Below are positions 1-54,110 of a DNA stretch of 64,000 bases, one piece after another (position 1 is the stretch's first letter; every line of letters begins with the position of its first letter). The translations under genes and the position numbers were made by a program. Source of the DNA: Dipteris shenzhenensis (taxonomy: Eukaryota); assembly GCA_047967505.1 (NCBI GenBank), contig CM106538.1; one strand, given 5' to 3'. Below the pieces are notes generated by a model. The model made no database searches. It was not told the origin of the DNA and saw only the letters and a program-made list of their open reading frames with translations.

Positions 1-2132
1 AGGCCCTACATATGCTCTTCTTTGCGGATTGTGCGACCTCTCCAACTAATTCACTCAGATCTGTGCGGACCAATGCCGACCATATCTCTGACTGGGTCGC
101 GTGACTTCATGACTTTCATTGATGATTTTACCCATTTTACCATCATCTCATTCCTTCCTCAGAAGTCTGAAGCACTATCTCACTTCATAGCGTACCAGAT
201 TTTGGTCGAGAATCAATTAAATCGCCATATTTAAACAATACGCACGGACAATGGTGGGGAATATACATCAGGAGATTTCACTGCTTATTGTCAACAAATA
301 GGCATCTTGCATCAATATACTATCCCCTATCATCACCAACAACATGGTAAAGTAGAGAAAAAGAACGGCGATGTCATGGCGTCCTCTCGATCAATGCTCA
401 AACAAGCTGGTCTACCGAATTCTTTTTGGGAGGAAGCCATTTCTATGGCATGTTATCTATAGAACCGATTATCCACCAGCACATTGCCCAGCATGATGCC
501 ATATGAGGCCTGGATGGGCAGGAAACCAGTGATCACACATCTTTGCATTTTTGGGTCCCCTGATCTTTGCATTTTCGGGTCCCCTGCTTACTCGTTCATA
601 CCTCCTGAGCGACTACATAAATTGGATGATTGTGCAGCAAAAGGCATTTTCGTAGGCTACGGGGATCGGTTTGGGGTTAAAGCCTATCGAATCTACCATC
701 CAGGCACTCGACGTTTTTCTTTTAGCAGAACAGTCTTCATCAACAAAAATGCTCTACTCCTTGCTTGTGATCATGCATTGACATCTTCAGAGACTCCACC
801 TGTACAAAAAGAAACACCCTTGTCAATAACAGATGATTTTGGGGACAACCAATTTGAAGAAGAAACACCCGATGTAATTCACTATTTGATCGATCTAGCC
901 CCCTTGCCGGCACCACCTTTACCCCCACAAAACGCCCCTCCTATTGTTCCGGTTTCGACACAATTACTAACTCCTCAACCACAAGCGATGCCTTTACCCA
1001 CAATGCATCAACGACTCAATGCTCAATCTCCTTCAAGATCCGGCAATGCACAATTCCATAGCTGAGTCTTGCCAACTTCCCGCCACCAGACCCGCATGCC
1101 GGATGTGTTCACCAGCAGACAGACATACGGCCAAAGACAGTCATGCAATATCCGTCCACATGGCTCCTATGCAGTGGCGCAGCTTGGTGGACACGTGGGC
1201 GGTCAAAACCCTCTATTGTCAGCCCACGAACTACAACCCAATGAGCCACTACCCCCACATGCAAACTCGTCATCATGTCGCATGGATGACGAAACAGATA
1301 CAACAGCCGACGCATCTCTCGCTAGTCATGCAACAACGTCCACCTCTGAGACGACTTCACCTTTCGTAAGAGATAATGACCCTTGCAACGAGCAAGGTAC
1401 CCCTTCATCAGACGAAGACGCCACCCACCAATGGACTCGCCTCCTCACAGACGTCCTTGCAGAGGCTCACCTTGCTTCCCTCCCTAAAATACTACAAAGC
1501 GATCAATCACTCCTCACGATGGAAGGAGAACCGGACACCATCTTTGTCCAAGATGCTCTCTCTGGCCCTGAAGCACAACAATGGAGGGCCGCCATGAATG
1601 ACGAGATTCACTCCCTTCAGCAAAGCGAAACCTGGACCCTTGTTGACCGACCGACAGACCAAATAATAATCTCGTGCAAATGGCTACTTCGACACAAGAT
1701 TAACTCTGATGGATCTCTAGGCCGCTATAAAGCCCAACTCGTGGCTCGTGGTTTCTCTCAGATTGAAGGTGAGGACTACTATGAGTCCTATTCCCCGTAC
1801 TCAGTATGACCTCGTTTAGGGTGTTGGTTGCTCTCGCTGCCCATAATGGACTCCATATTCATCAAATGGATGTTCGAACTACGTTCTTACATGGTGACCT
1901 TGAGGAGGATATTTACATGGACCAGCCCCAGCATTATGTATCGCCCATTCACCCAGACAAGGTATGCAAACTTCGACGCTCTCTCTATGGGCTCAAACAA
2001 TCACCACAGTGTTGGTACCTGAAATTCCATCAGTTTATGATTGGTCACGGATACAAGAGGCTCCCTACAAAAGCAAACGTCTACATTTGTCACAAAGCTC
2101 ATGTGCTACTGATTGTAGCCATTTACATTGAC
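1..2132 (+). mobile_element. Ty1/Copia retrotransposon A, decayed pol (integrase core, then RT up to the YIDD motif)
   Basis: Integrase motifs LIHSDLCGP, FIDDFT, RTDNGGEY and KLD..A.KGIFVGY; RT motifs CKWLLRHKINSDGSLGRYKAQLVARGFSQ, HQMDVRTTFLHG, SLYGLKQSP and IYID. Integrase-before-RT order indicates Copia. Stops and frameshifts present; cut at IYID by a repeat array. Confidence 0.95.
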
Positions 2133-2134
2133 GG

Positions 2135-3830
2135 GTCTAGGGAGATTTGGCCATGCGGCCAAATCTTTTGAAAGCAGCAAGGTTTGGGGAGTTTTGGCTG
2201 TGGTGCCAAATCTTCCTAGCTTGTTTCTAATCACGAGTGTCTAGGGAGATTTGGCCGTGTGGCCAAATCTTTTTAAAGCAGCAAGGTTTAGGGAGATTTA
2301 GCTGTGGTGCCAAATCTTCCTAGCTTCTTTCAAATCACCAAGGTCTAGGGAGATTTGGCCGTGTGGCCAAATCTTCTTAAAGCAGCAAGGTTTAGGGACA
2401 TTTAGTTGTGGTGCCAAATCTTCCTAGCTTGTTTCTAATCACGAGTGTCTAGGGAGATTTGGCCGTGTGGCCAAATCTTTTTAAAGCAGCAAGGTTTAGG
2501 GATATTTAGCTGTGGTGCCAAATCTTCCTAGCATCTTTCAAATCACCAAGGTCTAAGGAGATTTGGCCGTGTGGCCAAATCTTTTTAAAGCAGCAAGGTT
2601 TAGGGAGATTTAGCTGTGGTGCCAAATCTTCCTAGCTTCTTTCAAATCACCAAGGTCTAGGGAGATTTGGCCGTGTGGCCAAATCTTTTTAAAGCAGGAA
2701 GGTGTAGGGAGATTTAGCTGTGGTGCCAAATCTTCCTAGCTTCTTTCAAATCACCAAGGTCTAGGGAGATTTAGCCGTGTGGCCAAATCTTTTTAAAGCA
2801 GCAAGGTTTAGGGAGATTTAGCTATGGTGCCAAATCTTCCTAGCTTCTTTCAAATCACCAAGGTCTAGGGAGATTTGGCCGTGTGGCCAAATCTTTTTAA
2901 AGTAGTAAGCTTTAGGGAGAATTAGCTGTGGTGCTAAATCTTCCTAGCTTCTTTTAAATCACCAAGGTCTAGGGAGATTTGGCCGTGTGGCCAAATCTTT
3001 TTAAAGCAGCAAGGTTTAGGGACATTTAGTTGTGGTGCCAAATCTTCCTAGCTTGTTTCTAATCACGAGTGTCTAGGGAGATTTGGCCATGTGGCCAAAT
3101 CTTTTCAAAGCAGCAAGGTTTAGGGAGATTTAGCTATGGTGCCAAATCTTCCTAGCTTCTCTCAAATCACCAAGATCTAGGGAGATTTGGCCGTGTGGCC
3201 AAATCTTTTTAAAGCAGCAAGGTTTAGGGAGATTTAGCTATGGTGCCAAATCTTCCTAGCCTCTTTCAAATCACCAAGGTCTAGGGAGATTTGGCCGTGT
3301 GGCCAAATCTTTTTAAAGCAGCAAGGTTTAGGGAGATTTAGCTGTGGTGCCAAATCTTCCTAGCTTCTTTCAAATCACCAAGGTCTAGGGAGATTTAGCC
3401 GTGTGGCCAAATCTTTTTAAAGTATCAAGGTTTAGGGAGAATTAGCTGTGGTGCTAAATCTTCCTAGCTTCTTTCAAATCACCAAGGTCTAGGGAGATTT
3501 GGCCATGTGGCCAAATCTTTTTAAAGCAGCAAGGTTTAGGGACATTTAGTTGTGGTGCCAAATCTTCCTAGCTTGTTTCTAATCACGAGTGTCAAGGGAG
3601 ATTTGGCCGTGTGGCCAAATCTTTTCAAAGCAGCAAGGTTTAGGGAGATTTAGTTGTGGTGCCAAATCTTCCTAGCTTCTTTCAAATCACCAAGGTCTAG
3701 GGAGATTTGGCCGTGTGGCCAAATCTTTTTAAAGCAGCAAGGTTTAGGGAGATTTAGCTGTGGTGCCAAATCTTCCTAGCTTCTTTCAAATCACCAAGGT
3801 CTAGGGAGATTTCACCGTGCAGCCAAATCT
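2135..3830. repeat. 104-bp tandem repeat, 16 full units plus a partial 17th, each with hairpin AGATTTGGCC-N4-GGCCAAATCT
   Basis: GTCTAGGGAG recurs at 2135, 2239, 2343, 2447 ... 3799, an exact 104-bp period. Each unit has one perfect and one degenerate palindrome. Confidence 0.97.
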
Positions 3831-3884
3831 TGTATGTTTTGAAAGAAGCTAGGAAGATTTGGCCATGCGGCCAAATCTCCCCAT

Positions 3885-6520: not shown

Positions 6521-6579
6521 AAAGCATTTTCATCCTAAGTCACACCATCAGATATCAATATTGAACTATAACAAATGTT

Positions 6580-7122
6580 ATGTATGCAAGTGCCACATTG
6601 AAAGTGGGGGTTAAAGTCAACTTGCTTGTCAGTGGAAAGATTGTTGCCATTGGGACAATATTCTCTACATCACATGATGACATGTGCCAAGGTGTGCCCT
6701 TGGGAGAAAACAATGTTTCAGTGGCGATCGATATTTGTATGGATGAAAGTGCACTTCTTCCATTTCCTACAATGGATGCATTCTTAGTCTATGAGGCTTT
6801 GGGTAGTGTTGTTCGTTGGAAAGCACGATCAATGAGTTGTGTGGACAATGTCAATGGAGCTATTTTACCAATGAATGATATAACATCAGATACCATTGAT
6901 GTTGAACCTCTATGTGAATATGATGAGTTTTCCATTCGAGAATCATGGAAGGACAAGAAAGTTTTAATATGGGATGAGCAGAAAACCAAGAGCATTGCTG
7001 AGGGTGTTGTTTTGTATGTCTACCCATTTGAACCTATAAACTTTGAGATGCTTGGTGAAGGTAATGTGGGTGTGGGAATTGAAAAGTATCATAGTGATGT
7101 ATCAGGCATCGATACCACTTAA
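6580..7122 (+). CDS. Transposon-associated protein with two Tnp1/En-Spm-like (DUF8039-like) domains; probably the N-terminal part of the downstream transposase gene
   Basis: VAIGTIFS..MCQGVPLGENNVSVAIDICMDESALLPFP and a second copy IAEGVVL..MLGEGNVGVGI resemble the plant transposon-associated beta domain. Confidence 0.55.
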   Translation: MYASATLKVGVKVNLLVSGKIVAIGTIFSTSHDDMCQGVPLGENNVSVAIDICMDESALLPFPTMDAFLVYEALGSVVRWKARSMSCVDNVNGAILPMNDITSDTIDVEPLCEYDEFSIRESWKDKKVLIWDEQKTKSIAEGVVLYVYPFEPINFEMLGEGNVGVGIEKYHSDVSGIDTT

Positions 7123-7184
7123 TAAAATGGCCCATTGCACAAATAACCTTTTTAGATGGAACTTCATTAAGAATCGATGACACC

Positions 7185-9818
7185 ATGAATTTTCCAAGTG
7201 GTTCTAGGCAAAAGCACATGGAAGATGAGGACCCAAATGAAAAATCCACAAAAAAGAGGCGTTACTACATGATAAAGAGGAAAGCTAAAAAACATGGCAT
7301 GCCATTAGCATCATCTAGACTCACAAGGGATGCAGTCACAAAAGTATCTATGATTGATTGTTGTAAACAAAATTGTTGTCAATTTGTCGATCGTCAAATG
7401 ATATCCAAATTACGCATAGAGTATTGGGGCCAAAGTTTGGAGGCTCGCACCAATTATGTATATGACACTCTTGGGGTTGCTTGTCGAAAAGATGACAATG
7501 GTGGGCAGTTCAAATATGTCTTTTCATTGAATGGTATTCAAGTTTGTTGTAGAGCATGGTATGAAATGCATGGTATTCCAAAAACAACATTTTATCTATA
7601 TAGGGAGCAATTTGAAATTGGTATACGAAGGTGCATGCATGGTAATAAAGGAATCGTGTGGAGAGGTTGGGACCACATAGAACTGGGTAGAGCCATAATC
7701 CAAGATTTTGTGGATAACAATTCTGAGCGTATGCCACACAAAAGTAGAACACTTCAGGATGGATCAAGGGAAACACAGCTCATGATACCAGATGTATACA
7801 AGCAGGTTGATATTCTCTATGAGGTTAACATCATGCAATTAAAGCATAGTTTGGGTTGTAAGGAGATGTCAACTTCCACATTCAACCGTATATGGAACTC
7901 TGAATTCAAGCATGTAACTTTGTCAAAAACAAGTGAATTCTCTAAGTGTGGTTTATGTAGTGCAATCAAGGCTTGTAGCGACAAAATGCCAAAATGAACG
8001 TGATAAGTTGATGGAAGATAGAAGAAAGCACATGTTACAACAAAAAAGTTGTAGAAATGTGTACTACACTTGGCGCAGATTTTCTGAAATGTATCCTCAG
8101 ACATACTTGTGCATTATCCATGATAAGATGGACCAAAAGGAGACAGCCATCCCTAGATTACGCAATCGTTCAAAGGACACATACAAATCCTTTCAGCTCC
8201 CAGTGGCTTTGACTGGCATGATAACACATGGACATGGTCAAGGACGTTATGGTCACTTTTCTTTATCCTTGTGGCCATCGGATCCTAACTTCACAATCGG
8301 TTCATTGGCTTTGTGTTTGAGAAATCTTGAAAGATTTGATAACCATGCACTTGGAGATTTGGTACATGATGGGATGCCAAGGTCTGATAACGCTCTGCTA
8401 AATGCACTAACCTCAAGAGAAGCATTGGATTCTCACTATGTTTCTAATGAAAAGCAACAACTTCATCTTGGAGCAGTGGGTGGAACATTCAAAGACCTTG
8501 GACTTGGAAGTTCCCATTAAGAAAATCCTTATAAGAAGCTACCCGAACACCTATTATTGCAGTTGGATAATTGTGGTTTTGAAAACAAGAATAGGTACTT
8601 GTTTGCTTACCTATCATTACTTGTCACTCGAGGGATTTTCAAGTCAATTCAATTGGGATTCTTGATGGTTGGGCATACACATGAGGATATTGATGCAATG
8701 TTCAGCAGCTTTTCAGAGAGGTTAAGAACTAGCCAAACATTGACATTTGCACATCTCATGGATACTTTTAGACAATGTGAGGAGTCTTCTCCAACGCCAT
8801 TTTTGGTAACGGAAGTCCCTGATTTCAAGAGCTATGTTGATGGATGCCTATGCATGGGCAAGATGCTTTAGTGGGACACTCAAAGCCTCTCCAATTTTGG
8901 TTCTTTATGCGAAATGAAGTTTCTATCATGCAATATAAAGTGCATCCACGATCATTAGATTGGCAACCAAGTGAAGGTGGCATTGAGTTGTGGAAGAGAC
9001 ATCTGGATGGTCATCCAATGCTACCAAGTGGAGAGCCACCTTGTGTACCCATGTTCGAGTATGTGAAGGATCACTCACATGTGATAGTTGGTATCAAGGA
9101 GTATGTACACTTTTGGGAAAAATGGGCACACGTGCAAGGTCCAGAAGCATCTTTCACAAAGTTTTACAAGCCGGTAGTGAAGTACTGGAAGAACATGATT
9201 GATGAGCTTCATAAACCAAACAATAGTGTAGAGGGCATGTACGAGAGATTTTGGCCAAAGACGCAACATATTGATTGTGTGCAAGTAGTTGATAATAAAA
9301 ATGATGAGTTTCAAGGAATTGAAGAGTTGAATGATCACTATTGTGGACCTCAAAGGAAAAAGCCAAAACAATCATTTGATCCAATGATTGATGTACAAAA
9401 AGGACACTTTCTTTTGGTCCGACCAACAGAAAAAATTTACCCAATTTGGCTAGGCATTTGGCTAGGCATTGCTCAAACTGATGTACAAAAGGATAATAAA
9501 TCTAAAAATTTCAAGAAGGTTTTCATACAATATTGGGCACCTATATGCAAAAGACGCAATGCACAAATTGAGGAGGTGTATGCAGATTGTTGGAACAAGA
9601 TTTGGATGTGCAATAAAGGTGATCCTCCACGTTGGGAATCTGTTGATGCTATTGTATGGTCATGGGTTCCAAAAGGTAACCTCTCAAAGAAGGTTTCCTC
9701 AAAGAGTAGCAACCTCCCCATCAAGGTGAAGATACCAACCATTGCATGCAAGCGAGCTTTATCTAGTTTGTCTCATAGTACAGATTCCAACTCTGATGTT
9801 GACTCCACAATGGAGTGA
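7185..9818 (+). pseudogene. DUF7869-family RNase H-fold transposase, frameshifted across four ORFs
   Basis: FSKCGLC..H, CIIHDKMDQ, QLDNCGFENKN and FLMVGHTHEDIDAMFS occur in consecutive overlapping ORFs (7185-7997, 7933-8520, 8557-8871, 8844-9818). Confidence 0.85.
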
Positions 9819-12215: not shown

Positions 12216-13906
12216 GCATGTGGCGTCATCAGAAACACAGGAAATAGGTTCCTATCCTAGGAAATGACCAAGTATATTTTCCTTCTCCAGGAGGGACAAA
12301 TGGAAGAGGAGGCCTTGACCTGAAGCCTTGATCCTACTCCTGGCCTTTCTGATCCTCTTATTTCTATAGATGAGCCCAACATCTACAATGAAGAGCCCAT
12401 AGATGAAGAAGCTGAGGAGCGAGAAGTTTCATTGGCCCTAGAAGTGCTCCAGTGACCTCCTAAACCCCATTCTACTTCTCAAATTCCATCCACCTCGAGC
12501 ACCACCTATGTTGAGCCTGCAACAGTGATATGCTTTCTTGCTGCCCTTCTTATCGATGGAGAACAATACCTCTTTCTCCATGACATGGAGGTTATGTTTG
12601 GTCTCCAGGAGGATGAAGCTCTTGGTGGCTTGTGTGGATATGACTATGCAAGAAGCTAGGTTTTTGGGAGCAGATGATTCAATAGAAGAGGTTCTTGCTT
12701 TAACATTGGCCAAAATCAAAGATGCCTCTGACATCAATCTACTTCGACCTACTTGATGTTCTAGAAGAAGCCTCCCCATCTCACTCCAGATAGTAGGAGG
12801 CCTCTGGATCCATCCTCATTGACAAAGAGGAAGGGATCGAGCATGATGACTCCATAGTGGTAAGAAACTATGAGCTTTGAATTTCTTCTCTCTTGGTATA
12901 ATTTTGCTTTAAGGAATTCTAATGTAATGTTGGACTATTGCAGGAGGCATTTGAGGTCGACCTATTCTCATCTCCGCAACGCCTTGTTCATAGTAGCTTC
13001 GATTGAGATCACTCATTGGCACATTACCTTGGCAAAGAAAAAGGGTGCTTTGTGGTTATCCACAAAAAGTTTTCTCCACATAGCACTGATGACCTCCTGA
13101 AGTGCAAGGCCTTGTTATGAGTGATTGGTCATGCTGACATCAATCGCAATGCTAACAAGGTCATTTTGATGAACCGCATGGCTGCCCTCAATGCTTTTGG
13201 AACCAATTTTCAAGGTATGGCATTGACGGCAAGCCATGTCCCTGGCCAAGATGACAATAGTCTTGACTCTCTATCGACTAGGTTTAGAGCTAGGACTGTA
13301 TTTGGGAATTCAAAGCCCGATGTTCTTAGTGCTTTAGAGAAGAGAGAAAGGCTCTGAAGCCTTATTGTATAGAACTTTTATTTTATATGAATAGAGATAT
13401 ACTTTTTATACAGTGCCCCATTTTGTGTTCTTTTACAAAATTTATTTTATACTGTCATTGTATTTTGTAACTTTAATTGTTATTGGCATTACTATTTTCA
13501 TTCACTATTCTGTTCAAAAGCAAGCTATCAGATAAATTTTTGTGCTATAATGGTCATTTTTTAGCAATCCAGTAAGAATCTCACATGGCACAGAAGGAAA
13601 ATGCGTTTGGCATCGTGCGGGGAGCTCAGAATTGGTCAAACAAGCCTCATACATGCCATAGTGTGTTTTGACATTTTTGAGCTTCCCACACAATGCCGAA
13701 CACATTTGCCTTTTGCGCCATGGCAAAAAACACATCATTTGACCACTTAAATTCACACAACTTGCATAACTGATGGAAAGCATCATGTAACATGTATAAT
13801 AACATGGAAACAGTAATAGAACATAAAAATATCTTTTATTCATTGGCCTCAAAGGGCAGAGATTTACAAAATGATTGAAATTACACCAAATGAACCTAAA
13901 CAACAT

Positions 13907-14988
13907 CTAGGGCCTAAGGGAGGGATCGGAGTGGTTGCGCTTGGCGAGTGCAAGGTCCTTATCCATCACTGTTACTCTTTTGGCATGGATAGCACATAAG
14001 TTCGCATCTTCAAAAAGACCTACTGTCATTTGCTTCGTTGCCTCTTGAATTGCTCCCATAGCACCTGAAGTGAAATGCACATCATCCTTGTAATGCTATG
14101 CTATTTCACATACAACAAGCTGGAAGGGTGCACGGGGAATGAGATTGTCCACAGTGGTTTGGAACTTGCGGATCTCCTGAAGTGACTTCACCCCTGATTT
14201 TTTGCACCTCTTAATCTTTGGGGGACCTTGCACTGGCCTCTGGACATGGCCCCATGGCTGCTTGTCCGCTTTGAACTTCTTTCGCCTCTCCTCCCTTGCA
14301 ACCTCCTCTATAGACTCCTCTTCCTATGTCTGGTGGGTCCTTCGAGGTGGCTTGTCATGCCTAGGAGCCTTCTTTGTCCTTGGTCCCTTTTCCTTTTGGT
14401 GAGGCTATGAGACAGCAAGCTGAGGCTCTCGCTCAGCTCGTACTAGAGGCTCCTCATGCTCTTTCGTGCGATCTGCTTGGTTGGAGGATTGAGGCCAAGG
14501 TCTGTTATATCTCCGAGCCTGCCAAATACTTCCTCTTGTTGTGGCTCCTCTAATCTCTCCATCTACTCTCTTTTCCTTTCTTGCTCCCCTTGTTAGTCTA
14601 GATGCTCCATGCCAGGACCCCACGGAGCAGGGAGGGGCAGTTGATCACGATTAATTGGACTATTCTATCCCTCTTGGGAGACCTCTGTACTTCCACGGTT
14701 AGTTGTGTGGAAGGACCAAGAGGACCCCTGATCATGCTTGGATCTTTCATTGTGCTAGGATTCCTCATGGTGCTGAGATCCCTAGTATCCCCCATGAGAG
14801 TCCGATGGTGGAGACTCATGTTGCTAGGACTCCTAATGATGAGAACCGCCTTCAAATCCCTGCTGATCATTGCCCTCTTGGCCACTGGGGCTTGTAGTGT
14901 GTTCGGAGGCCATGGAGTTGTGAGGAGGAGAGCGGGTTGCATCTAAACGACGTCCAGTGGGTCTAGCAGTTTGTTTAACCCGTGCCAT
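13907..14988 (-). pseudogene. Divergent histone H3-like gene with a very long N-terminal tail (about 360 codons; stops and one frameshift)
   Basis: Manual translation: start MARVKQTARPTGRR; C-terminus [88 protein letters not shown], collinear without gaps with the H3 histone fold. Confidence 0.93.
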
Positions 14989-15002
14989 AGAAATGAGGGA
15001 TT

Positions 15003-15053
15003 TTAGGGTTTTGAAGTGCTTTATATAGTCTTTTTTAAGGCACTTTAGGGTTT
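15003..15053 (-). promoter_or_regulatory. Putative core promoter of the H3-like gene: TATA box flanked by two telo-boxes
   Basis: On the minus strand, CTATATAAAG about 35 bp upstream of the ATG, and AAACCCTAA at about 15003-15011 and 15045-15053. Confidence 0.45.
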
Positions 15054-15269: not shown

Positions 15270-18157
15270 TTACATTTGGGGTTCTCTTAGGACCCAACGC
15301 CTCCCTTGTCTAACTCTATGTTGCAACAACCAAAGTGCAACCCCTTGGCTCCCTGTTGAGGACTTCCAAGTAGCACATCTCCTTGTCTTCTTGACATGTT
15401 GAACCACTTTTGCAATACTTGAGAACTCTACCTTATCGCGCTTGAGAGTCCTGGCCTCTAGACATCTATAAAACCAGTCGAACATTTCGTGTAGTGCATT
15501 GCTTCATGCGATACCACCCCCATGCCTTGTATTATTGAAGTATGATGCCTTTGCTCTGTAGTGTGATTTCTCCATTCCTTGAGTATTCCAAATGGACAGA
15601 GGGCCCCATTGCTCCACAAACCATGATGCATGTGCGTAAAGAATATGCTATAAAGAAAAACATCATATAAGAAACATAAACTGACTCAAGTTTAAACCAC
15701 AAAATTTCAACCTAAGGAGGATTACCATGTAATGTGTAATATGTGACTCCCCCCATGCTTCTACCATCAATGATATGAATTCTCCCAATGCTGTCCTGAA
15801 TCTCTCATAATAAAGCTCATCTATTTGACCTTGTCTAAGCAACTTTATAAATGCATCAAGCTTTGTTCACAATTTTTCTCTCAAAGTAGCAATTTGCGGA
15901 TGTGAAGCTTGATTTGTAGTGCACTCACACAAAGCTTGCTAGTACTCCCAACCCAGGTTGCTTTGAGCCAATGTATGTTTTTCTTTATCAACATTGTGGT
16001 TGGACAAGAACCTCCTTGCCTTTCCTCCACCCATGGACACTTTAGTAGGAAGATTTTATGTCTTTCCTGATTGTTTCTTGTCCTGCTTAAGCTTCACATT
16101 GCCTTCGTGAAGTCCCATTAGTGAGATTAGTTCTTCAGCTTTTGCAATGCATTGTGTAGATACTTGCAGTGGCCTCAAATTCCAAGCATAAACTAGATGG
16201 ATATAGAGTAACTTATCAAGTATGCACAGTTTAGCATGCAAAGTACACAGCGTACCCGATCCAATGGAATTGGTAGAATGGGGTCCCACTTAGGATCCTT
16301 TTTGTGATGATTAGGGGCTGCACTTTGGTTGCAAGAAAGGATGCCATATTCCCACTGTAGGCTTCCCTTTTGCATCTTCTGAGAGTGGGTGCAATACAAG
16401 CATGTCCATTTTGCATCTGCACCTGTATCACAACCATACAAGCACTTGAGGGTCTTCAAATCACCAGCTAGATGCCATTCAACTTGAAACATTCCATGCC
16501 CATCCACTTTTAATGTTTGCCTTATCTCTTGTCTTCAAATAATCGACGGGATGTCGGTTCTCTCCAAAACCCACTTCAATGTCTCATGGCACTCCTTTTG
16601 GGGTCTCAAAGGCTGCAAGCCACCATAAGTCCTTCTCAGATTGCACTAAGAAAACCTATTCAACTTCCTCATCCCCTTGAGCAAAACGCAAGGCATCATT
16701 CATAATACAAATGCTCACCCTCTCTAGCTTGTGCTCTTTTACCAACTGAGCTTCATCCATTTTTATAACAAATACTAGCTTGCCATCTGTACAATGAAAG
16801 AGAAATACAGTAAGGATATAGAAATGATAAGAAATAAAGTTGAATGCGAAGAGGCAATTTCTCTTACCTTCTTTTCTCATCCCATAGAATTTGACCATGG
16901 CTCTCTGCAAATTCTCTACATCCACGTAAACATTATTGAAAGCATTCATCTCAAACGTTTGGACGCCAGATTTCTTTTTACTCTTCCAAGTCATTGTGCT
17001 ACTTACACAATGGTATCCTCCAAGCTTTTCTCTAGCACATTGATTTGTTTCTTGACATGCAAGCATTACAGACCACGGTGTTGGCAATGACATTTTAGAT
17101 ATCTTATACTTTTCATCCATAGCAGACTTGAAAATCTTAAAAATAGAGTTGTAAGCTTCACGACTTACACCAGCGGAATCACAAGCTCCAAACACCTCCT
17201 TTGCTTGCACAAGGCTCTTGAAGTCCTTCATTACCTCTCCAGCAACTTGTTCACATAGCCCTTTTTATCAAGGGTCCTTCAACACTTCAATGACATCACG
17301 TGGCTTTACTAAACTTCTTAGACATATAAAGGATCACTATCATCCATTTCCATTGTTGCCATCACATCCTCCATGAAATTCCTAAAGTAGAGTACAAATG
17401 AGTCTTAGTGGAAACAATGCAACACCATGAATATTTTGGAGTAAGAAATTTCATTGAAAATTTGGGGAACTAACCTTGCAGCCCGTATTCTCCTCTTTTG
17501 GGCACCACTATTAGTTGATAATGCATCCATAGATTGCAATTGTCTTTTCCTCTCCTTTAGTCCCAAAGGTGTTCCCTTCAACTTTTGTACTCATTCTATT
17601 GACTTCTCTCATTCCTTCTCCACAACACATTGAACTTGGCCATAAATAAACCTTTCCAAATCCTGTTTGCTTTTAGTAAGCTTCTAGATTGATTCTTCGA
17701 ATTCTTGTTGCTCCAATTCCATTGCATGTGCTTTGTCACTGAGTTCTTTGTTTTACAATTGGAGATCTTGCATACTATTATGCATTGCCACAATAGTGAT
17801 ATTTCCCAAATGTGCAAGTTCTTCTGCTTGGGCTCTTTGCACCTCACTTGCTTGCATAGCCAATGTTTGAGAATGGTTCAATTGATTGCAATAACTGAGC
17901 AATCCAACATGTCCCTTGCCAACAAACCGAACAACATCATGCATTGTATGAAAAGGAGGACTCTTTGGGGTGGCAGGGTCTAAAGAATACAAGTTTCCAT
18001 CCACCCCAAGGTCAAGATGCTTCTTCCCTTGCAATCGAAGATTGTGGAGCACACTTTGAGGAGTTCCACTATATCCCAAAGAGTGTGTGCTTGCATATTC
18101 TGCCTCTAGTTGTAGGTTCACATGGTACTTGTTGGATATGTCCTTGAATGGTGCCAT
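15270..18157 (-). pseudogene. RAG1-core/Transib(Chapaev)-like DDE transposase, 4 exons, decayed
   Basis: Ordered motifs AQKRRIR; VSREAYNSIFK; VIKMD; VQSEKDLWWL..ECHETL; AGDLK..G..CLYC; TLHAKLCI; ITHYM/HILYAH..GPLSIWNTQGMEKSH. GT-AG introns at 17382-17474, 16787-16867 and 15648-15725. Confidence 0.88.
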
Positions 18158-18229
18158 GAGTTCTCAAAGAGAGGTATCAATGATGTAGGCTCAAATGTAG
18201 GGGAGAGCTAGCAAAGATGGAGCAATGAG

Positions 18230-20322: not shown

Positions 20323-20904
20323 ATACCTCGATCGAGGTATTATGTCCAATGAAAATCACACACAAGGACAACTGAGCCAAGCCGATACCTCGATCGAGGT
20401 GCTGGGCTTTTTTCATCGAACCGAGCCTATACCTCGATCGAGGTCTGCTGGCATGCCACCTATACATGCCACCTATACCTCGTTCGAGGTATCGTGGCAA
20501 TCCAGCTATACCTCGATCGAGGTATTGTGGCATGTCCAACTATACCTCGATCAAGGTATGTGCCATCCGACAGGGTAGTTGACATACCTCGACCGAGATA
20601 TACTGGATCGATGACTTGGCCGCATGTCGAATACGTCAATCGAGACATGTGGCATCCGGCTGCTGCTGACATACCTCGATCGAGGTATCGTGGCAGGTCA
20701 ATACCTCGATCGAGGTACATGTACCGATGTGTATGGGCATGTCAAAATACCTCGATCGAGGTATCGTGGCATGTCTATACCTCGATCGAGGTATGATGGA
20801 GCGATATGTATGTTGCATGTGAAATACCTCGATCGAGGTAGGGGAACCCTAAATTTTCTTATAAAAGGAGAGTGACCCCCCTCATTCTTCATACCTCGAT
20901 CGAG
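20323..20904. repeat. Subterminal array of about 14 copies of the 18-bp palindrome ATACCTCGATCGAGGTAT with variable spacers
   Basis: Copies at 20323, 20385, 20429, 20475, 20508, 20542, 20584, 20631 (degenerate), 20671, 20701, 20747, 20777, 20824 and 20891 (partial). Confidence 0.95.
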
Positions 20905-21059
20905 CTCCTCCTCATAGACTGATTTCGGATTTGCGGGAGGTCGACGGAATTGCGACAGCGACGGAGAGTGATCGACGGACAACGACTGAGATGGACGGAG
21001 CGGGAGAGTCCAGGTAAGGTTTTTTTTATGTAGCTTTTTTTTTTGCTAAAATTTATTTA

Positions 21060-25942: not shown

Positions 25943-26174
25943 ATGCTATGAACTTTATCATTTTGAATATCATATTGAATTTCATATATATCAATGCTTA
26001 CAATTATTACACTAAACCTAAGAGCTGTGCGAAGTTTCATCCCCATGTGCGTATTTAAAACTAAGAGTATGATTTTGAATTTCAGATATCTCAATTCACA
26101 CATCTAATACATAAGGTATTTTAAAAATGATGCCTGTGTCGTAATTGTAAACATTAAGCATTGAAAAGGTGCTT

Positions 26175-28960
26175 GCAAAAATGTACGCATTATACCTTCC
26201 ACGTGGTGCATACCAAACCAATTGGAGAACAAATCTTGTGTGGATGTACGTCTAGGGCAGCCTAAGAGCCGTGTGAAGTTTCATCCCCAACAGGGTTTAG
26301 GATTTAGGGTTTAGGGTTTAGGGTTTAGGGTTTAGGGTTTAGGGTTTAGTCATGCTAGTAGGGATTGTAAAAATGTATGCATTATACCTTATACGTGGAG
26401 CAAAACAAATCAGTTGCATACCAAATCTTGCATGGATGTACGTCTAGGTAGCCTAAGAGCCATGTGAAGTTTCATCCCCAACAGGGTTTAGGGTTTAGGG
26501 TTTAGTCGTGCTAGTACGGATTGTAAAAATGTATGCATTATACCTTCCACGTGGCGCATACCAAATCAGTTGGAGATCAAATCTTGCGTGGATGTACGTC
26601 TAGGGTAGCCTAAGAGCCGTGTGAAGTTTCATCCCCAACAGGGTTTAGGATTTAGGGTTTAGGGTTTAGTCGTGCTAGTAGGGATTGTAAAAATGTATGC
26701 ATTATACCTTCTACCTGGTGCAAACCAAATCAGTTGGGGACTAAATCTTGCATGGATGTACATCTAGGGTAGCCTAAGAGCCGTGTGAAGTTTCATCCCC
26801 AACAGGGTTTAGGGTTTAGTCGTGCTAGTAGGGATTGTAAAAATGTACGCATTATATCTTCCACATGGTGCAAACCAAATCAGTTGGACACCAAATCTTG
26901 CATGGATGTATGTCTAGGGTAGCCTAAGAGCCATGTGAAGTTTCATCCCCAACAGGGTTTAGGTTTAGGGTTTAGGATTTAGGGTTTAGGGTTTAGTCGT
27001 GCTAGTAGGGATTGTAAAAATGTACACATTATACCTTCCACGTGGCGCATACCAAATCAGTTGGAGACCAAATCTTGCGTGGATGTACGTCTAGGGTAGC
27101 CTAAGAGCCATGTGAAGTTTCATCCCCAACAGGGTTTAGGATTTAGGGTTTAGGGTTTAGGGTTTAGTCATGCTAGTAGGGATTGTAAAACTGTACGCAC
27201 GTGGCACAAACCAAATCATTTGGAGACCAAATCTTGAATGGATGTATGTCTAGAGTAGCCTAAGAGCCGTGTGAAGTTTCATCCCCAACAGGGTTTAGGG
27301 TTTAGCATTTAGGGTTTAGTCGTGCTAGTAGGGATTGTAAAAATGTATGCATTATACCTTCCACGTGGTGCAAACCAAATCAATTGGACACCAAATCTTG
27401 CATGGATGTACGTCTAGGGTAGCCTAAGAGCCGTGTAAAGTTTCATCCCGAATAGGGTTTAGGGTTTAGGGTTTAGGGTTTAGTTGTGCTAGTAGGGATT
27501 ATAAAAATGTATGCATTATACCTTCCATGTGGTGCATACCAAATCAGTTGGACACCAAATCTTGCATGGATGTACATCTAGGGTAGACTAAGAGCCATGT
27601 GAAGTTTCATCCCCAACAGGGTTTAGGGTTTAGTCGTGCTAGTAGGGATTGTAAAAATGTTCACATTAAACCTTCCACGTGGCGCATATCAAATCAGTTG
27701 GACACCAAATCTTGCGTGGATGTACGTCTAGGTTCTTCGAAGAGCTGTGTGAAGTTTCATCCCCAACAGATAAGTCCACATGCGTATTTCATTAGTACAT
27801 GCGCCATTTTTCATACGTAGTCGTGCTAGTAGGGATTGTAAAAATGTACGCATTATACCTTCCATGTGGCACATACCAAATCAGTTGGACACCAAATCTT
27901 GCATGGATGTACGTCTACAGTATCCTAAGAGCCGTGCAAAGTTTAATCTCCAACAGATAAGTCCACATGCATATTTCGTTAGTACGTGTGCCATTTTTCA
28001 TACGTAGTCGTGCTAGTAGCGATTGTAAAAATGTACACATTATACCTTCCACGTGGTGTATACCAAATCAGTTCGAGACCAAATCTTGCGTGGATGTATG
28101 TCTAGGGTGGCCTAAGAGTCATGCGAAGTTTCATCTCCAACAGATAAGTCCACACATGTATTTCGTTAGTACGTGCGCCATAGCTTTGTCGCAGTCGTGC
28201 TAGTAGGGATTGTAAAAATGAATGCATTGTACCTTCCACGTGGCACATACCGAATCAGTTCGAGACCAAATCTTGCGTGGATGTACGTCTAGGGTAGTCT
28301 AAGAGCCGTGTGAAGTTTCATCTCCAATAGATAATTCCACGTGCGTATTTCATTAGTACGTGTGCCATTTTTCATACGTAGTGCTGCTAGTCAGGATTGT
28401 AAAAATGTACGCATTATACCTTCCACGTGGCACATACCAAATCAGTTGGACACAAAATCTTGCATGGATGTATGTCTATGGTAGCCTAAGAGCCGTGCAA
28501 AGTTTAATCTCCAACAGATAAGTCCACATGCATATTTCGTTAGTTTGTGCACCATTTTTCATACGTAGTCATGCTAGTAGGGATTGTAAAAATGTATGCA
28601 TTATACCAAATCAGTTAAAGATGTCTAGGGTGGCCTAAGAGTCATGCAAAGTTTCATCCCCAATAGATAAGTCCACATGTGTATTTCGTTAGTACGTGCG
28701 CCATAGCTTTGCCGCAGTTGTACTAGTGGGCATTGTAAAAATGTACGCATTATACCTTCCACGTGGCGCATACCAAATCAGTTGGAGACCAAATCTTGCA
28801 TGGATGTATGTATAGGGTGACCTAAGAGTCGTGCAAAGTTTCATCCCCAACAGAATTGTCCACATGCGTATTTCGTTAGTACATGCACCATTTTTCATAC
28901 GTAGTCATGCTAGTAGGGACCAACAGATAAGTCCACACGCGTATTTCGTTAGTACGTGCA
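26175..28960. repeat. Satellite with an approximately 135-bp core: first 9 units end in (GGGTTTA)2-8, later units (187-bp period) end in a fixed approximately 50-bp segment
   Basis: Core gtcgtgctagtagggattgtaaaaatg...gaagtttcatccccaacag is repeated about 16 times. Telomeric tract counts are 8, 3, 4, 2, 6, 5, 4, 4 and 2. Confidence 0.96.
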
Positions 28961-29279: not shown

Positions 29280-32222
29280 TATGATATGTAATGTGCTACT
29301 CCTCAGGATCAGCTCTCATGCCAATAGTTGCAAGTATGCTCTCATGATTCGCCACTGCAAGGTGCCATCATGGAGTGGACGTCGCCTTGCGAGTGCGAAT
29401 ACGACTCAAAGTAATCTTGATCCCAACAACAAGATGAGAATACATGTATGCCTCCTGATCCGCCATGTACTCCTGGAACTCAATATAGTGACCACGCCTC
29501 TGTATCTGCTGAAAATAGTGGCCACCTACGATCATGCTATGAGCATTGAAGTGCATCCCATGCCCATCCACTGTATCCTCATTCAGCACACTCTTCAACA
29601 TAGAGCATCGCAACAAGTAATAATCCACACCCTCCTCATTGCCCTCCGAAGCAATAACCACGAAGATATCACCAATACGCAAAATATCTGTAAGTTGGTC
29701 ATAATCTCTAGAGGAACTAAATCCCACATCCTGATCATCATGTACCTCCTCCCAAGGCTGGAAGGGAGAAAGCACTCGTCGTACCCATGGATCGGCCCAT
29801 GGTATCATGGAGCACCCTCCCCAATCATCATCAATGCATGCAGAGCAAAAACATGCAAACCGTCGAGAAAAGATCACGGGGTGAGACTCACCTATGCTCC
29901 TGATGGAATGGAAATCAAGAGTGCCAGACACATAACTACAATCAAAAGGCCTAGACCGATCAAGACTCCCAATGTCCACGCACCAAAAATATTGGCTCAC
30001 CACCCTATCATCATGCGACTGAAACGAGGAGATAACACTAGTGGATAAGTGCTGGCTGCACCACCGAACCACATCATGTGCATCCTTGAAGCGATCGGCA
30101 CTGTGACGCAACTGGTATCGACACAAAGCACGCTTCACGCAAGCACCTGCACCATCGTGCTCTCCCTTACCATGCCATGTCTCGAAGTAGCTCCATGTGA
30201 TCGGAATGCTTGTCTCACGGTGCCATCTGCAGAACCAATAAAACTGTCTAGCAGATTTGAACTAACCACCACAGCCGTCTGACCAGATCCAGCACCGCTG
30301 CCATGTGACACCATGATCCCTCAAGAAACTATCATGCAAAGTGAAGCAATGCTGCACAAAATGGGCATCATGCGATCGATCATCACTAATGTAGAAGTGA
30401 TACTCTCGCACAATGACACGTGAGTCCATGGTGCTATCAATGCCATCCACATGAGCCTGTGCATGATGATAGCTAATGTGCAAAATATAGCAACCTACAA
30501 TATGGCATTGAAAAAAAATATGACTATTGAAATAATTCAATATAACGAGGTAGGGAAAAAATCAATACTCAATCACACGTCACCTGTTTGGAGAAATAAT
30601 ACTCCGATTGGATCTCATGCTGTGGTGCAAAGGTGTAATTCTCCGCAAAGTCCACCACTGAGACAACCACCCCTGTAGGAAATGTCCTCAAACATGCACG
30701 AAACTGATGATCCTCCCATTTCACAGTGTGCGAGTGGCGTATGTAGCGGTACAGCTTCCCTCGAAAATTGTCAATGAATACAACACGTGGTGTCTCCTTC
30801 CCCACAAGCTGCAACCTCCTCGACTGTGCACCACCATCTAATGTCAAGGTACTGTACTCATACTGCTGCCAACGAACCATTTGCACATCACAAGTATCTA
30901 GTGCAACTCTAGCAAAGTCACCACACAAAGTACACCTGCCTTCCACACAATCAAGGGAGTGGAATAAAGCATCACCATCTCGTGTACACAATATGGAATG
31001 AATGAAGTCGCGAGGGCTAGTAGGAACCACTCCCATATGACCATCAAGGGAACGGAATACGTCATACATCAATCCAAAATCCACATGGTAGCGACAACAA
31101 CATGTGTCACACTCCTAAGAGCATCGCACAAACCATGGCCTGCATCGCTCGAATGACCTCTACCCAATCCTGAACTCCGAGTGCGCCTCTACAAACTGAG
31201 TGTACAACTCAGTCTGGGTACACTCCAAAAAACATGCACCATGCTCAATGTACACACCGCGTGACACCCTCTTCCGCAATGCCTTCTTAAACACCGGGGA
31301 TGCTCTACAATGCTCCTCCTGAAACTGTTGTATGAAGGACCTAGTGGAATCATCCAACAATCAATCGCTGTGAGGTGCACGACCACTCGAAGCCCAAAGA
31401 GCATCAGTCTCACTATCCTCTAGACTCTACCTCCTAATCATGCCTGCTCGCAATGTGCGCAGTGCAATCTCAAGAAGACGTGAAGCGGTACGCACATGGC
31501 CTATCATATGAGGTCTACTAATGGCAGCCACAATAGCACGACGTGCTGCCAAGGCATCACTGGAGTTCCTATGCTTAATAGAAGCATAGGAATGTCGAAC
31601 ACTGCTAAGGACCTCACTAGATACAACCCTATCTCTATGTGCACCAAGACCAGCAAGCCTCCTACACCCTACCAAGTTAGGGTGATCAATCAGGGATGTG
31701 AGAAGAGAAGACTGTGAAGCTGGCGTGAGGTCACAAAAAAAAGACTACACAATCTTGCTAGTACGATGATGGATAGTGGACTTCAGCGTCGTGAAGCAAC
31801 ACTGTTGTTGCAAGGTGGGGCAAGGGGATCAATGGGAGATGGTAGGGTGGACGGGGGAAGGGATGTGCCAAGGGGAACGGGGGGGGGGGGGGGGGGGGGG
31901 AGGGGGAGGGGGAGGGGGGAGGGTGGAGGGGGAAGAGGTAGAGATGGAGGCCAAAATGTAGGTGGCTAGGGGAAGGGCGGAGGCTAGAGGTAGGCGAGCG
32001 GATGAGGATGGGGGGACAATGGAGGTGGGGGTGGGGGTGGGGGCAGAGGTGGAGGTGGAGGTGGGATGTAGAGGTAGAGGTGGAGGTGGATCGGTGGTGG
32101 CAGCACGAGCTCTAGCTCTAGAGGCTCTCTTGCACTCACGAGCCTTTCGCTTGCACTCCTCGTCAATGAGATTTGGGGGGGGGTTCCTACATCTTTCACG
32201 TCTACTAGCTCTACGAGGTATG
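29280..32222 (-). pseudogene. Sola2-like DDD transposase, decayed and spliced
   Basis: VVDFAENYTF..EIQSEYY, YISDD..HD..FV, WSDGCGG*FKS and FETWHGKGEHDGAGACVKR; Cys clusters CVEGRCTLC and FACFCSAC; basic N-terminus and Pro-rich linker. Confidence 0.85.
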
Positions 32223-52053: not shown

Positions 52054-54110
52054 TGTGAAGAGAGTGGGAGAGAAGTAAGGAGACTCACTTGCAGCTTTCT
52101 CACATACACAATGGGGGAATACACACAAAAGGTGGAGCCTGAAAATAGTTTTCCTCTTCTTAGTTGCGAAAGCCAAAAGAACTCTCTCTAAGTACAAAAG
52201 GAATAGGTGAACCCTATATGTGGGTCTCAAACCAAACTCAGCTAACCTAGGTGGCATGCTAACTGAGCCACTAACTAGAATACATAAATATAGCTGTCAT
52301 CCAGCTATTATTCATGGGTGGTGTACCAACCATATCTGCAGCTAACAAGTCGGTGATATAAATGCACAACGGTCACCCTGGCATATCACAAGTGGAGCTC
52401 GATATCTCAACACTCCCCCTCGAGCTCAATCCCAATTCCTGCACACCAAGTAGGTCTCTGAACTTGCGCAGCTTCTCTGTGCCTAATGCCTTTGTGAATA
52501 TGTCAGCTACCTAATCCTCTATGCTGACATAAACTAGATCAATAAAACCTACTAGAACCTTCTCCCCCACATAGTGATAATGCACCTCAATGTGCTTTGT
52601 TCTAGCATGATAGATTGGGTTATTTGCCAAGTCTATACTGCTCATGTTGTCATAATAAATGACAACTAGCCCATCTGTAGACTAATGCATATCATAAAGT
52701 AGCATACGCAACCAAGTTACCTCACATGCAACCATTGCTGCACCCCTGTACTTAGCCTCTGTGCTCGACAAGGCAACTGTAGGCTATTTCTTGTTGCTCC
52801 AAGTGACTGCAGCACTCCCAAAAGAGAACACATATCCACTAGTAGATCGTCTATCAGAAATACTACCAGCCCAATCAGCAGTGTGTATCCATGCAATTGT
52901 ATCTGAACCGTAGTCTCATAAAATAGTCCATACTGCAATGTGGACTTCACGTACCTCAGTATGCATCTAGCCGCATCCAAATGCGATTTCCTTGGAGCCT
53001 GCATAAAATGACTTACCAACCCAATAGCATAGCTCAAATCTGGCTTGGTAATAGCCATATAAATCAAACTTCCTACTATGCGTCTGTACATAGTAGGGTC
53101 TTCTAGAAGCTCACCTGCATCTATGCTCAACTTCACATTTTGCTCCAAAGGAGCTGAAATAGTCTTATAGCCTGTCATCCCATATTTGGACAGCATGTCC
53201 AATCCATACTGCCTCTGCAAGAGCCATATCCCACTTGTGGATCTAATCACCTCAATGCCCCAGAAGTAATGCAGCTCTCCCAAATCCTTCATCTCAAATT
53301 TTTGCTTCAATGCATTTTCACATGAAGGATATCTTCATCACTATCACCTGTGATGATCAAATCATCAACATAAATGACAAGCAGCATAATGCCTTTCTCT
53401 GTTTTTCTCACATAAAGTGAGAAATCTGCCTTGGAAATCTGAAAGTCAATAGTGACAAGATACTGTTCTATCTTGTTAGACCATGCTCTGGGTGCTTGCT
53501 TCAAGCCATACAAGGCTTTCTTCAACCTGCAAACAAACTCAGGATGAACAGCATGGACATAACCTGGTGGCTGCTCCATATAGACCTCTTCTTGCAAATC
53601 ACAATGCAAGAAGGCATTCTTTACATCCATCTGATGTAAAGACCATCCCTTTGATGCAACCATAGCAATGACTGCTCTTACAGTTGCCATCCTTGCAACC
53701 GGACTGAATGTTTCTTCATAATCAATGCCATATGTCTGTGCATACCCCTTGACAACTAATCTTGCCTTGTATCTGTTCACCGAACCATCTGCATTGTGCT
53801 TCACCTTATAAACCCACTTGCAGCCAATTGCATTCTTGTCTTTAGGCAAAGGCACCAATTTCCATGTAGCATTTGCTTCCAAGGCATCCATTTCTTCATC
53901 CATGGCTTTCTCCCATTTTTCTTTTCCCATGGCTTGCTCAAAAGAAGTGGGTTCTGGTTCATGTATGACTTTGACCATATAGGAATAGTGAATGGCTGTA
54001 AATCCATCATATTTCAGCCTATCTACAGGATAACTCTGGTAGACCTGCGCAAAATAGGCTCACTACTAGGTGCTCTCAAAACATCCTAACTCATCATCAA
54101 GGCTCTGTTC
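52054..54110 (-). mobile_element. Copia E 3' half: RT, RNase H, PPT and 359-bp 3' LTR (52054-52412)
   Basis: GCKWVYKVK, YKARLV, QMDVKNAFL, LYGLKQAPRAW, IYVDDLII and TKHIEVHYHY; PPT gagggggag at 52413-52421; LTR TGTTGAG..TTCACA. Confidence 0.95.

Follow-up and report, generated by a model that had tools for sequence, protein, structure and literature searches.

A damaged, intronless histone H3-like gene with a long N-terminal tail and its relatives

Gene anatomy and histone fold

A stretch of 64,000 nucleotides from Dipteris shenzhenensis (contig CM106538.1 of assembly GCA_047967505.1; the whole of this stretch is called the window below) carries on its minus strand, at positions 14988–13907, an intronless histone H3-like gene with a length of about 359 codons. 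Read from its ATG (14988–14986), the product begins M-A-R-V-K-Q-T-A-R-P-T-G-R-R, and this H3-like N-terminus (M-ARVKQTAR-P, 14959–14988) keeps K4. Canonical H3 N-termini taken for comparison (P0293 and P0305) read M-A-R-T-K-Q-T-A-R-K-S-T-G-G-K, so that in the window copy proline stands in place of the K9–S10 pair; an intact relative, P0023, has the proline too and starts with MARTKQTARPS. After the N-terminus the same frame continues for about 165 residues, among which serine, glutamine, glutamate and histidine (S/Q/E/H) abound. In order along the gene there follow a low-complexity S/Q/E/H-rich tail (14518–14958), a conserved L-G-D-I-T-D-L-G...T-K-Q-I-A-R-K-S stretch (14458–14517) and a frameshift zone (14390–14454). 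A second frame, read from about 14389, encodes a basic and acidic linker, the family-specific pre-fold motif R-E-E-R-R-K-K-F-K-A-D-K-Q-P-W (14252–14296, from alignment), the H3-type fold (13931–14236) and a short C-terminal extension, S-D-P-S-L-R-P (13907–13930), which closes with a genuine TAG stop at 13909–13907 in the same column where the relatives end (...SDPALRH stop). From the ATG to the residue aligned with P30 of H3 (14236) there are 752 nt, which corresponds to a tail of about 250 residues. The gene can be aligned with its relatives collinearly and without postulating an intron.

The locus encodes a histone fold of the H3 type at a level well beyond chance. Pfam PF00125 (Histone) matches it at E 3e-26 with a score of 92.5 bits, where the cut-off is 26.4, and a sequence search of the PDB returned 179 distinct chains at E ≤ 0.001; all 60 of the 60 listed are named H3 and none CENP-A. 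The best of them is an H3.3 (E 1.5e-27) that aligns without gaps over alphaN, alpha1, loop 1, alpha2 and alpha3 (query 30–131 on H3.3 30–131), and because the alignment is gap-free loop 1 has its canonical length. The window copy keeps Q68 (PFQ), F84 (HF), C110, H113 and T118 (RVT) in this alignment, T107 is replaced by alanine (FEDANL), and the residues of the H3–H3' four-helix bundle (C110, H113 and D123) are present in CAIHAKRVT and KDL. A first-pass annotation made from the letters had proposed an H3-type gene with a tail of about 250 residues, an S/Q/E/H-rich spacer followed by a basic segment with no K27-type AARKSAP motif near the fold, and a fold with Q68, F84, the canonical loop-1 length, T107A and CAIHAKRVT; the Pfam match, the measured tail, the translation and the H3.3 alignment bear out each of these points.

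The gene therefore resembles H3.1 and H3.3 in its gap-free fold, in Q68, F84, C110, H113 and T118 and in the first eight residues of its tail, whereas it differs from them in the length of that tail, the proline at the tip, the absence of AARKSAP before the fold, T107A, the C-terminal extension and an overall identity of 46% (124 columns with the H3.3-like P0034). A canonical H3.1/H3.3 tail, with about 35–40 residues and K4, K9–S10 and K27–S28 in register, is not found in the window copy. Additionally, three arginines that contact DNA have been replaced, R69 by L, R72 by C and R83 by H, whereas the relatives from the ENA collection keep R at all three; the loss is read as further decay of the window copy. 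Since the closest relatives keep these arginines and the window copy does not, the putative nucleosome competence would have to be argued on the basis of those relatives.

An AlphaFold2 model of P0023 (34-row alignment; predicted template-modelling score, pTM, 0.24) places helices at 239–254, 260–273, 278–312 and 317–328, in the order alphaN, alpha1, alpha2 and alpha3, with a predicted local distance difference test score (pLDDT) of about 70–80, an extra confident helix at 15–42 and a weaker one at 192–211 over the pre-fold motif; the remaining tail scores about 42–62 per 10-residue block and mostly below 50. All 20 of the 20 Foldseek matches of this model in the PDB at E ≤ 0.01 are H3-type chains, from nucleosomes or H3–H4 complexes. 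The model nevertheless adds little to what the sequence comparisons already indicate.

A protein search with the tail only yielded 125 candidates, none of them at E ≤ 0.01, and found no homologue of the whole tail. Within the tail, T-K-Q-I-A-R-K-S at 14481–14458 resembles H3 residues 3–10, the K9/S10-like residues included. The stretch was located by tblastn with residues 2–26 of P0290, a relative that reaches further upstream than the other ENA fragments, which matched frame A, the frame of the ATG, at 14529–14455 (15 of 25 residues identical, E 0.001) and collinearly with the fold match; the window copy and P0290 have in common L-G-D-I-x-D-L-G and, a few residues later, (T/I)-K-Q-(I/T)-A-R-K-S. 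About 25 residues after the internal motif, K-K-A-P-R in the window copy recalls H3 13–17, but the likeness extends over four residues only and may be due to chance. No equivalent of the KQxARKS-type motif was detected in P0023. The translated product therefore displays the tip of H3 twice, once as a free N-terminus with proline after R8 and once as an internal copy with ARKS. The first-pass claim that K4 is kept and K9 lost consequently holds at the tip (ARVKQTARP) and fails inside the tail, and the further proposal that no N-terminal K9 marks could be carried applies to the extreme N-terminus only, given the ARKS-type motif at 14481–14458, which the annotation had missed. Tail mimics on non-histone and viral proteins likewise place short H3 N-terminal epitopes outside their normal context; here, however, the two motifs (a tip without K9 and an internal ARKS) are carried on a real H3-type fold.

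Upstream of the ATG, a putative TATA box was read from the sequence (TATATAAA on the minus strand, 15020–15027, 32–39 nt before the start codon), and a pattern search placed two telo-box-like motifs AAACCCTAAA around it, a distal one at 15044–15053 (about 60 nt upstream of the ATG) and a proximal one at 15002–15011 (between the TATA box and the ATG), both on the minus strand. Downstream, the hexamer AATAAA (13835–13840, minus strand, 67–72 nt after the stop) resembles a poly(A) signal. The window copy thus appears, from these motifs, to carry promoter-like and 3' signals of its own. A processed (retro-) pseudogene was considered and rejected, given the TATA box and two telo-boxes upstream and the lack of an A-run behind AATAAA. 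In the window the 10-mer AAACCCTAAA has 25 matches, where chance would give 0.29; 23 of these 25 matches lie inside a tandem array at 26.3–27.6 kb and the other two are the pair in the H3-like promoter. The array itself (26173–28919) is built of units of about 160–190 bp with 78–90% identity between copies and has brief tracts of (AAACCCT)n, the telomere repeat of plant type, embedded in it, its 23 AAACCCTAAA matches falling at 26303–27631.

Damage and mutational decay

The reading frame is broken by 9–11 premature stops, all but one of them TAG, and by one frameshift. The frame of the ATG meets seven stops before 14455, all in the low-complexity tail (TAG at 14835, 14826, 14784, 14757, 14667 and 14565; TAA at 14595), two TAG stops interrupt the fold frame (14326 and 14098), and the stretch where the frame changes (14454–14390) holds one further TAG in each of two frames (14445 and 14407). 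The frameshift is placed between 14455 and 14389 because the match of the relatives to frame A extends to 14455 and their match to the fold frame begins at 14389. In the alignment, the TAG at 14098 occupies the column of Q76, which is Q in all three aligned family members. The dead copy with about ten stops, mostly TAG, and one frameshift that had been described from the letters is recovered by this count.

The stops follow a mutational bias. Nine premature TAG codons compare with 10 remaining CAG codons, and one premature TAA with 13 remaining CAA (Fisher two-sided p = 0.021, on the assumption that every stop arose from a glutamine codon). The ratio of observed to expected (o/e) CpG is 0.36 at the locus and that of CAG 0.62; over the whole window the o/e values are 0.45 for CpG, 0.76/0.70 for CAG/CTG and 0.35 for CCG/CGG, with TG/CA in excess. 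The CAG-to-TAG bias, the low CpG ratio and the depletion of CAG fit long-term methylation in CG and CHG contexts. Because of the stop bias and of the arginine changes at 72 (Cys) and 83 (His), we infer that the copy was silenced long ago and then decayed under cytosine methylation. Repeat-induced point mutation (RIP) was examined as a source of the stops and rejected, the TpA/ApT ratio being 0.73, the substrate index 1.47 (window) and CpA+TpG not depleted. The mutation pattern, together with the plant-type telomere repeat and copia remnants, suggests a plant-like, heavily methylated and repeat-rich region.

It is very likely that the window copy is dead and has no present function. A live gene in which TAG is read as glutamine would account for the fact that all premature stops but one are TAG and that 14098 lies in a column of glutamines among the relatives; nevertheless, the TAA stop and the frameshift would remain, the terminal TAG matches the end of the relatives, read-through of it adds 130 junk-like residues rich in Cys, Phe and Tyr, and DNA-contact arginines have been lost too. 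Such recoding has next to no probability.

Relatives, family membership and the CENH3 question

When 1.84 billion representative sequences were scanned with HMMER, 10,928 of them scored at E ≤ 0.001, and 17 of the best 150 were examined as sequences. Among these, both the pre-fold motif and the C-terminal extension were found in P0012 and P0023 only. P0012 has 132 residues and 62% identity with the window copy (E 4.9e-41). P0023 is intact with 335 residues, of which 199–332 match the query 6–136; it combines the M-A-R-T-K-Q-T-A-R-P-S start with a long acidic tail, R-x-K-F-...-P-W before the fold and a similar C-terminal extension. The window copy, P0012 and P0023 agree without exception on the residues E, R, K, F, P and W of the pre-fold motif REERRKKFKxDKxPW. 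A profile built from these three sequences, used to score the 8000 candidates sharing most words with it, added P0275, P0277, P0288, P0290 and P0291, which with P0012 make up 6 of the 120 matches listed; the five added are all ENA sequences on contigs of 550–1253 nt, and a cluster look-up brought the ENA set to 26 distinct sequences in total.

A maximum-likelihood tree with 52 rows groups the window copy with six ENA members in a clade supported at 100/99, and this clade together with P0023 lies on one side of a branch supported at 94/83 and found in 96% of 200 bootstrap trees; the bootstrap is not fully settled, and the other 44 rows are H3-like proteins returned by the searches, with no named CENH3 among them. 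It is likely that the window copy is a member of a distinct family of long-tailed H3-like genes in which a tip devoid of K9 is conserved. The case that the first-pass annotation itself had named as fatal to its proposal, a canonical H3 in decay that owes its long tail to an unrelated insertion found in no other copy, could draw on the gap-free fold and its 46% identity with an H3.3-like sequence; the landmarks of the tail are, however, common to relatives (the ARxKQTARP N-terminus in P0023, the internal motif in P0290 and the pre-fold motif in all), and the family separates in the tree from the 44 other H3-like proteins. An insertion of this kind is thus highly improbable.

The ENA relatives look, from their sequences, like decaying repeats. 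All 26 of their open reading frames (ORFs) start at an internal methionine or at a substitute for the start codon, although their contigs measure 550–2175 nt; in 23 of the 26 the start does not come before alignment column 85, and in 15 of the 26 it falls inside the fold. Over 83 well-covered columns they show 29 singleton and 13 shared variants, pairwise identity has a median of 0.94 and a minimum of 0.81 (300 pairs), and about half of the replacements are of the C-to-T/G-to-A type (for example, arginine replaced by Q, H or C and alanine by T or V). The ends of P0391 and P0398 diverge, as judged by eye, in the way that frameshifts would produce. Since the relatives consist of many near-identical truncated copies, which had gone unnoticed in the first reading, the family appears to have been amplified, and we regard this amplification as probable.

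A search with P0023 added no further member among the 120 matches listed. Its matches were dominated by mammalian gene models (P0151–P0268) labelled 'uncharacterized protein' or 'CSE4-like', in which two or three canonical histone genes are fused; such fused models flood searches made with any long H3-like query. A degenerate DNA pattern of the pre-fold motif gave no match in viral contigs, and its only match in metagenome contigs (L001) lies inside a bacterial ORF and was discarded as a chance hit. At the level of titles and the openings of abstracts, no description of a long-tailed H3-like family or of a plant H3 borne by a transposon was found in the literature.

A long, divergent tail and a replaced T107 are also what a decayed paralogue of the centromeric histone CENH3 might show, and several relatives lend themselves to this interpretation: position 84 is W in the ENA group and I in P0023, Q68 is A in P0023, and loop 1 of P0012 is one residue longer. 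A proline two residues after the 'LI' of alphaN, a feature of plant CENH3, may point the same way. The window copy, however, has a loop 1 of canonical length, Q68, F84 and T118, its tail begins with an H3 N-terminus, and the PDB chains listed were H3 and not CENP-A. In PMC4359364, the one source from which the list was drawn, the diagnostics of CENH3 are an extended loop 1 and the absence of conserved Gln, Phe and Thr residues, at positions 69, 85 and 118. For the threonine the sources differ on the position (107 or 118), and the window copy has A at 107 and keeps T118, so that at most one feature is present (the replaced T107) and, by the diagnostics of PMC4359364, its sequence does not qualify it as CENH3. 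An origin from CENH3 is accordingly very unlikely, in line with the earlier remark that most hallmarks of CENH3 are lacking. The sequences of the relatives appear to form a mosaic of these diagnostic features. The family is akin to CENH3/CENP-A in having a long, fast-evolving tail on an H3-type fold and, in some relatives, in lacking Q68 or F84; it differs in the H3 N-terminus on the tail of the window copy and in comprising many distinct decayed ORF fragments.

Transposase-like neighbours and the origin of the family

On the same strand as the H3-like gene, decayed and frame-broken transposase-like ORFs occupy 15273–18163, with about 220 nt between their end and the H3-like promoter downstream; they did not figure in the first-pass annotation. 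They encode an Asp-containing strand, G-D-x19-CxxC, HxxxxH and a Glu about 20 residues further on, an order (D, GD-x19-CxxC, HxxxxH...E) that we take to be that of DDE transposases of the CMC and Transib/RAG1 types. In the Atlas, the nearest clusters of a 202-residue upstream ORF, eukaryotic and without a name, stand at 0.93 and a RAG1_RNase_H cluster at 0.88, and those of a 113-residue ORF at 0.97–0.98, one of them with Plavaka on 11% of its members; both results serve as leads. Because this decayed transposase-like gene lies directly upstream and on the same strand, a DNA transposon is the most likely vehicle of the family, and carriage by such an element is possible, although we place it short of an even chance.

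A precedent is known in fungi, where hAT elements carry H3-like (H3L) genes between the transposon ends and reach tens or hundreds of copies, and where C-to-T mutation has in some cases inactivated every H3L copy; these genes can be assigned neither to H3 nor to CENH3 (PMC3538342, PMC6710886). They are the closest known parallel. The H3L of Pyrenophora tritici-repentis and Pseudocercospora fijiensis share with the present family an H3-like character that is neither canonical nor CENH3, a changed N-terminal tail, many copies, frequent C-to-T inactivation and a DNA-transposase gene alongside. They differ in that the context here is plant-like, the mutation pattern is not that of RIP, the neighbour is no recognisable hAT transposase, the tail of about 250 residues is far longer and carriage by an element is only putative.

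Taken as a whole, we hold it probable, with moderate confidence, that the window copy is a dead, intronless member of a distinct long-tailed H3-like family that was amplified, most likely by a DNA transposon. If P0023 is a fair model, intact members would present a free A-R-(T/V)-K-Q-T-A-R tip followed by proline instead of K9–S10, then a long, mostly disordered and fast-evolving tail, the pre-fold R-x-K-F-...-P-W motif and an H3-type fold with the H3–H3' interface residues and a short C-terminal extension. Such proteins may enter nucleosomes by way of the fold and would there display an epitope of the K4 type with no K9 at the tip; in the window copy and one close relative, an internal KQxARKS motif places K9/S10-like residues inside the tail and not at its tip. 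The family would have spread with a DNA transposon, for which the fungal hAT elements offer the model, possibly multiplying within one genome, and the window copy would have been switched off long ago and left to decay under methylation.

Several observations weigh against this account. The promoter, with its TATA box and telo-boxes, resembles that of an ordinary plant gene, and the window holds a single copy of the H3-like gene. The 26 ENA sequences come from short contigs and could derive from several organisms or alleles and not from one amplified family. The P0023 model has a mean pLDDT of 61, and its Foldseek matches have low template-modelling (TM) scores with root-mean-square deviations of 12–16 Å. 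The upstream ORFs gave no meaningful match in Pfam (E ≤ 10) or in a sequence search of the PDB, a single-sequence fold of the 202-residue ORF was unusable (pLDDT 42.7), and the transposase identity draws on the Atlas leads and the motif pattern. No terminal inverted repeats were found around 12.0–20.3 kb, and the window is so packed with unrelated repeats that the adjacency of H3-like and transposase-like genes may be coincidence.

Many of these points would be expected if the gene were a pseudogene of a lineage-specific H3 variant encoded by the host, for instance in reproductive cells, that arose by plain DNA duplication and came to lie beside transposase remnants by chance. The TATA box, telo-boxes and AATAAA of its own, the existence of an intact full-length relative (P0023), the failure to find element ends and the abundance of unrelated repeats would all suit such a host gene. 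However, 26 distinct truncated ORFs with about 94% identity, two of them apparently frameshifted, are atypical of single-copy host genes, and the transposase-like ORFs lie on the same strand and end about 220 nt away. A host variant is therefore somewhat unlikely as the source, and amplification of the long-tailed family, most likely by a DNA transposon, is retained as the preferred explanation.

Nature offers few experiments on the histone code, and H3 variants in which particular lysines of the tail are changed or lost count among them; this family would join an H3 fold to a tip with K4 only, some members adding an internal K9-type motif. At least one member is intact, which opens the idea to laboratory tests. 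Should a transposon be the carrier of the family in a plant-like genome, the fungal H3L case would extend to another kingdom and the question would arise whether mobile elements use histones of their own against silencing. A plant (or plant-like) family of DNA transposons with its own counter-silencing H3, of which the window copy would be a silenced fossil, is a long shot. If it were true, this H3 would keep the K4 module at its tip, with proline for K9–S10 and an ARKS motif shifted inside the tail, and the element would use it to seed nucleosomes, or to decoy tail-binding enzymes, that could not be drawn in the normal manner into the silencing loop of H3K9 methylation and CHG methylation. 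The value of the locus lies in pointing to the family and in its clear record of mutational decay in CHG context.

As regards the surroundings of the gene, Pfam searches of three-frame read-throughs of both flanks detected only a decayed copia gag downstream (about 11.6–12.0 kb, minus strand; Retrotran_gag_2, E 7.8e-09), and Rfam gave no match in the whole window. An inverted repeat at 13584–13722, with 59-nt arms that are 78% complementary and a 21-nt spacer, lies 185–320 nt downstream of the stop and may be a foldback or MITE-like (miniature inverted-repeat transposable element) insert. At 20324–20907 the 16-bp palindrome TACCTCGATCGAGGTA is repeated 13 times, where 0.1 would be expected by chance, and its CpGs are intact; the cluster resembles the subterminal repeats of a DNA transposon of younger age and has no counterpart on the other side of the H3-like gene. 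Elsewhere in the window, Ty1-copia-type remnants with ORFs that look by eye like integrase and reverse transcriptase (RT) were found at 463–1809 (plus strand) and 52717–54059 (minus strand), and self-BLAST revealed a satellite with units of about 104 bp at 2134–3831 (about 16 copies, 92–95% identical). Four long ORFs in a run at 6565–9818 (plus strand, 185–325 residues) are probably one frame-broken gene of a large element, and two long ORFs rich in Cys and His at 29368–31114 (minus strand, 297 and 181 residues) are probably derived from a transposon.

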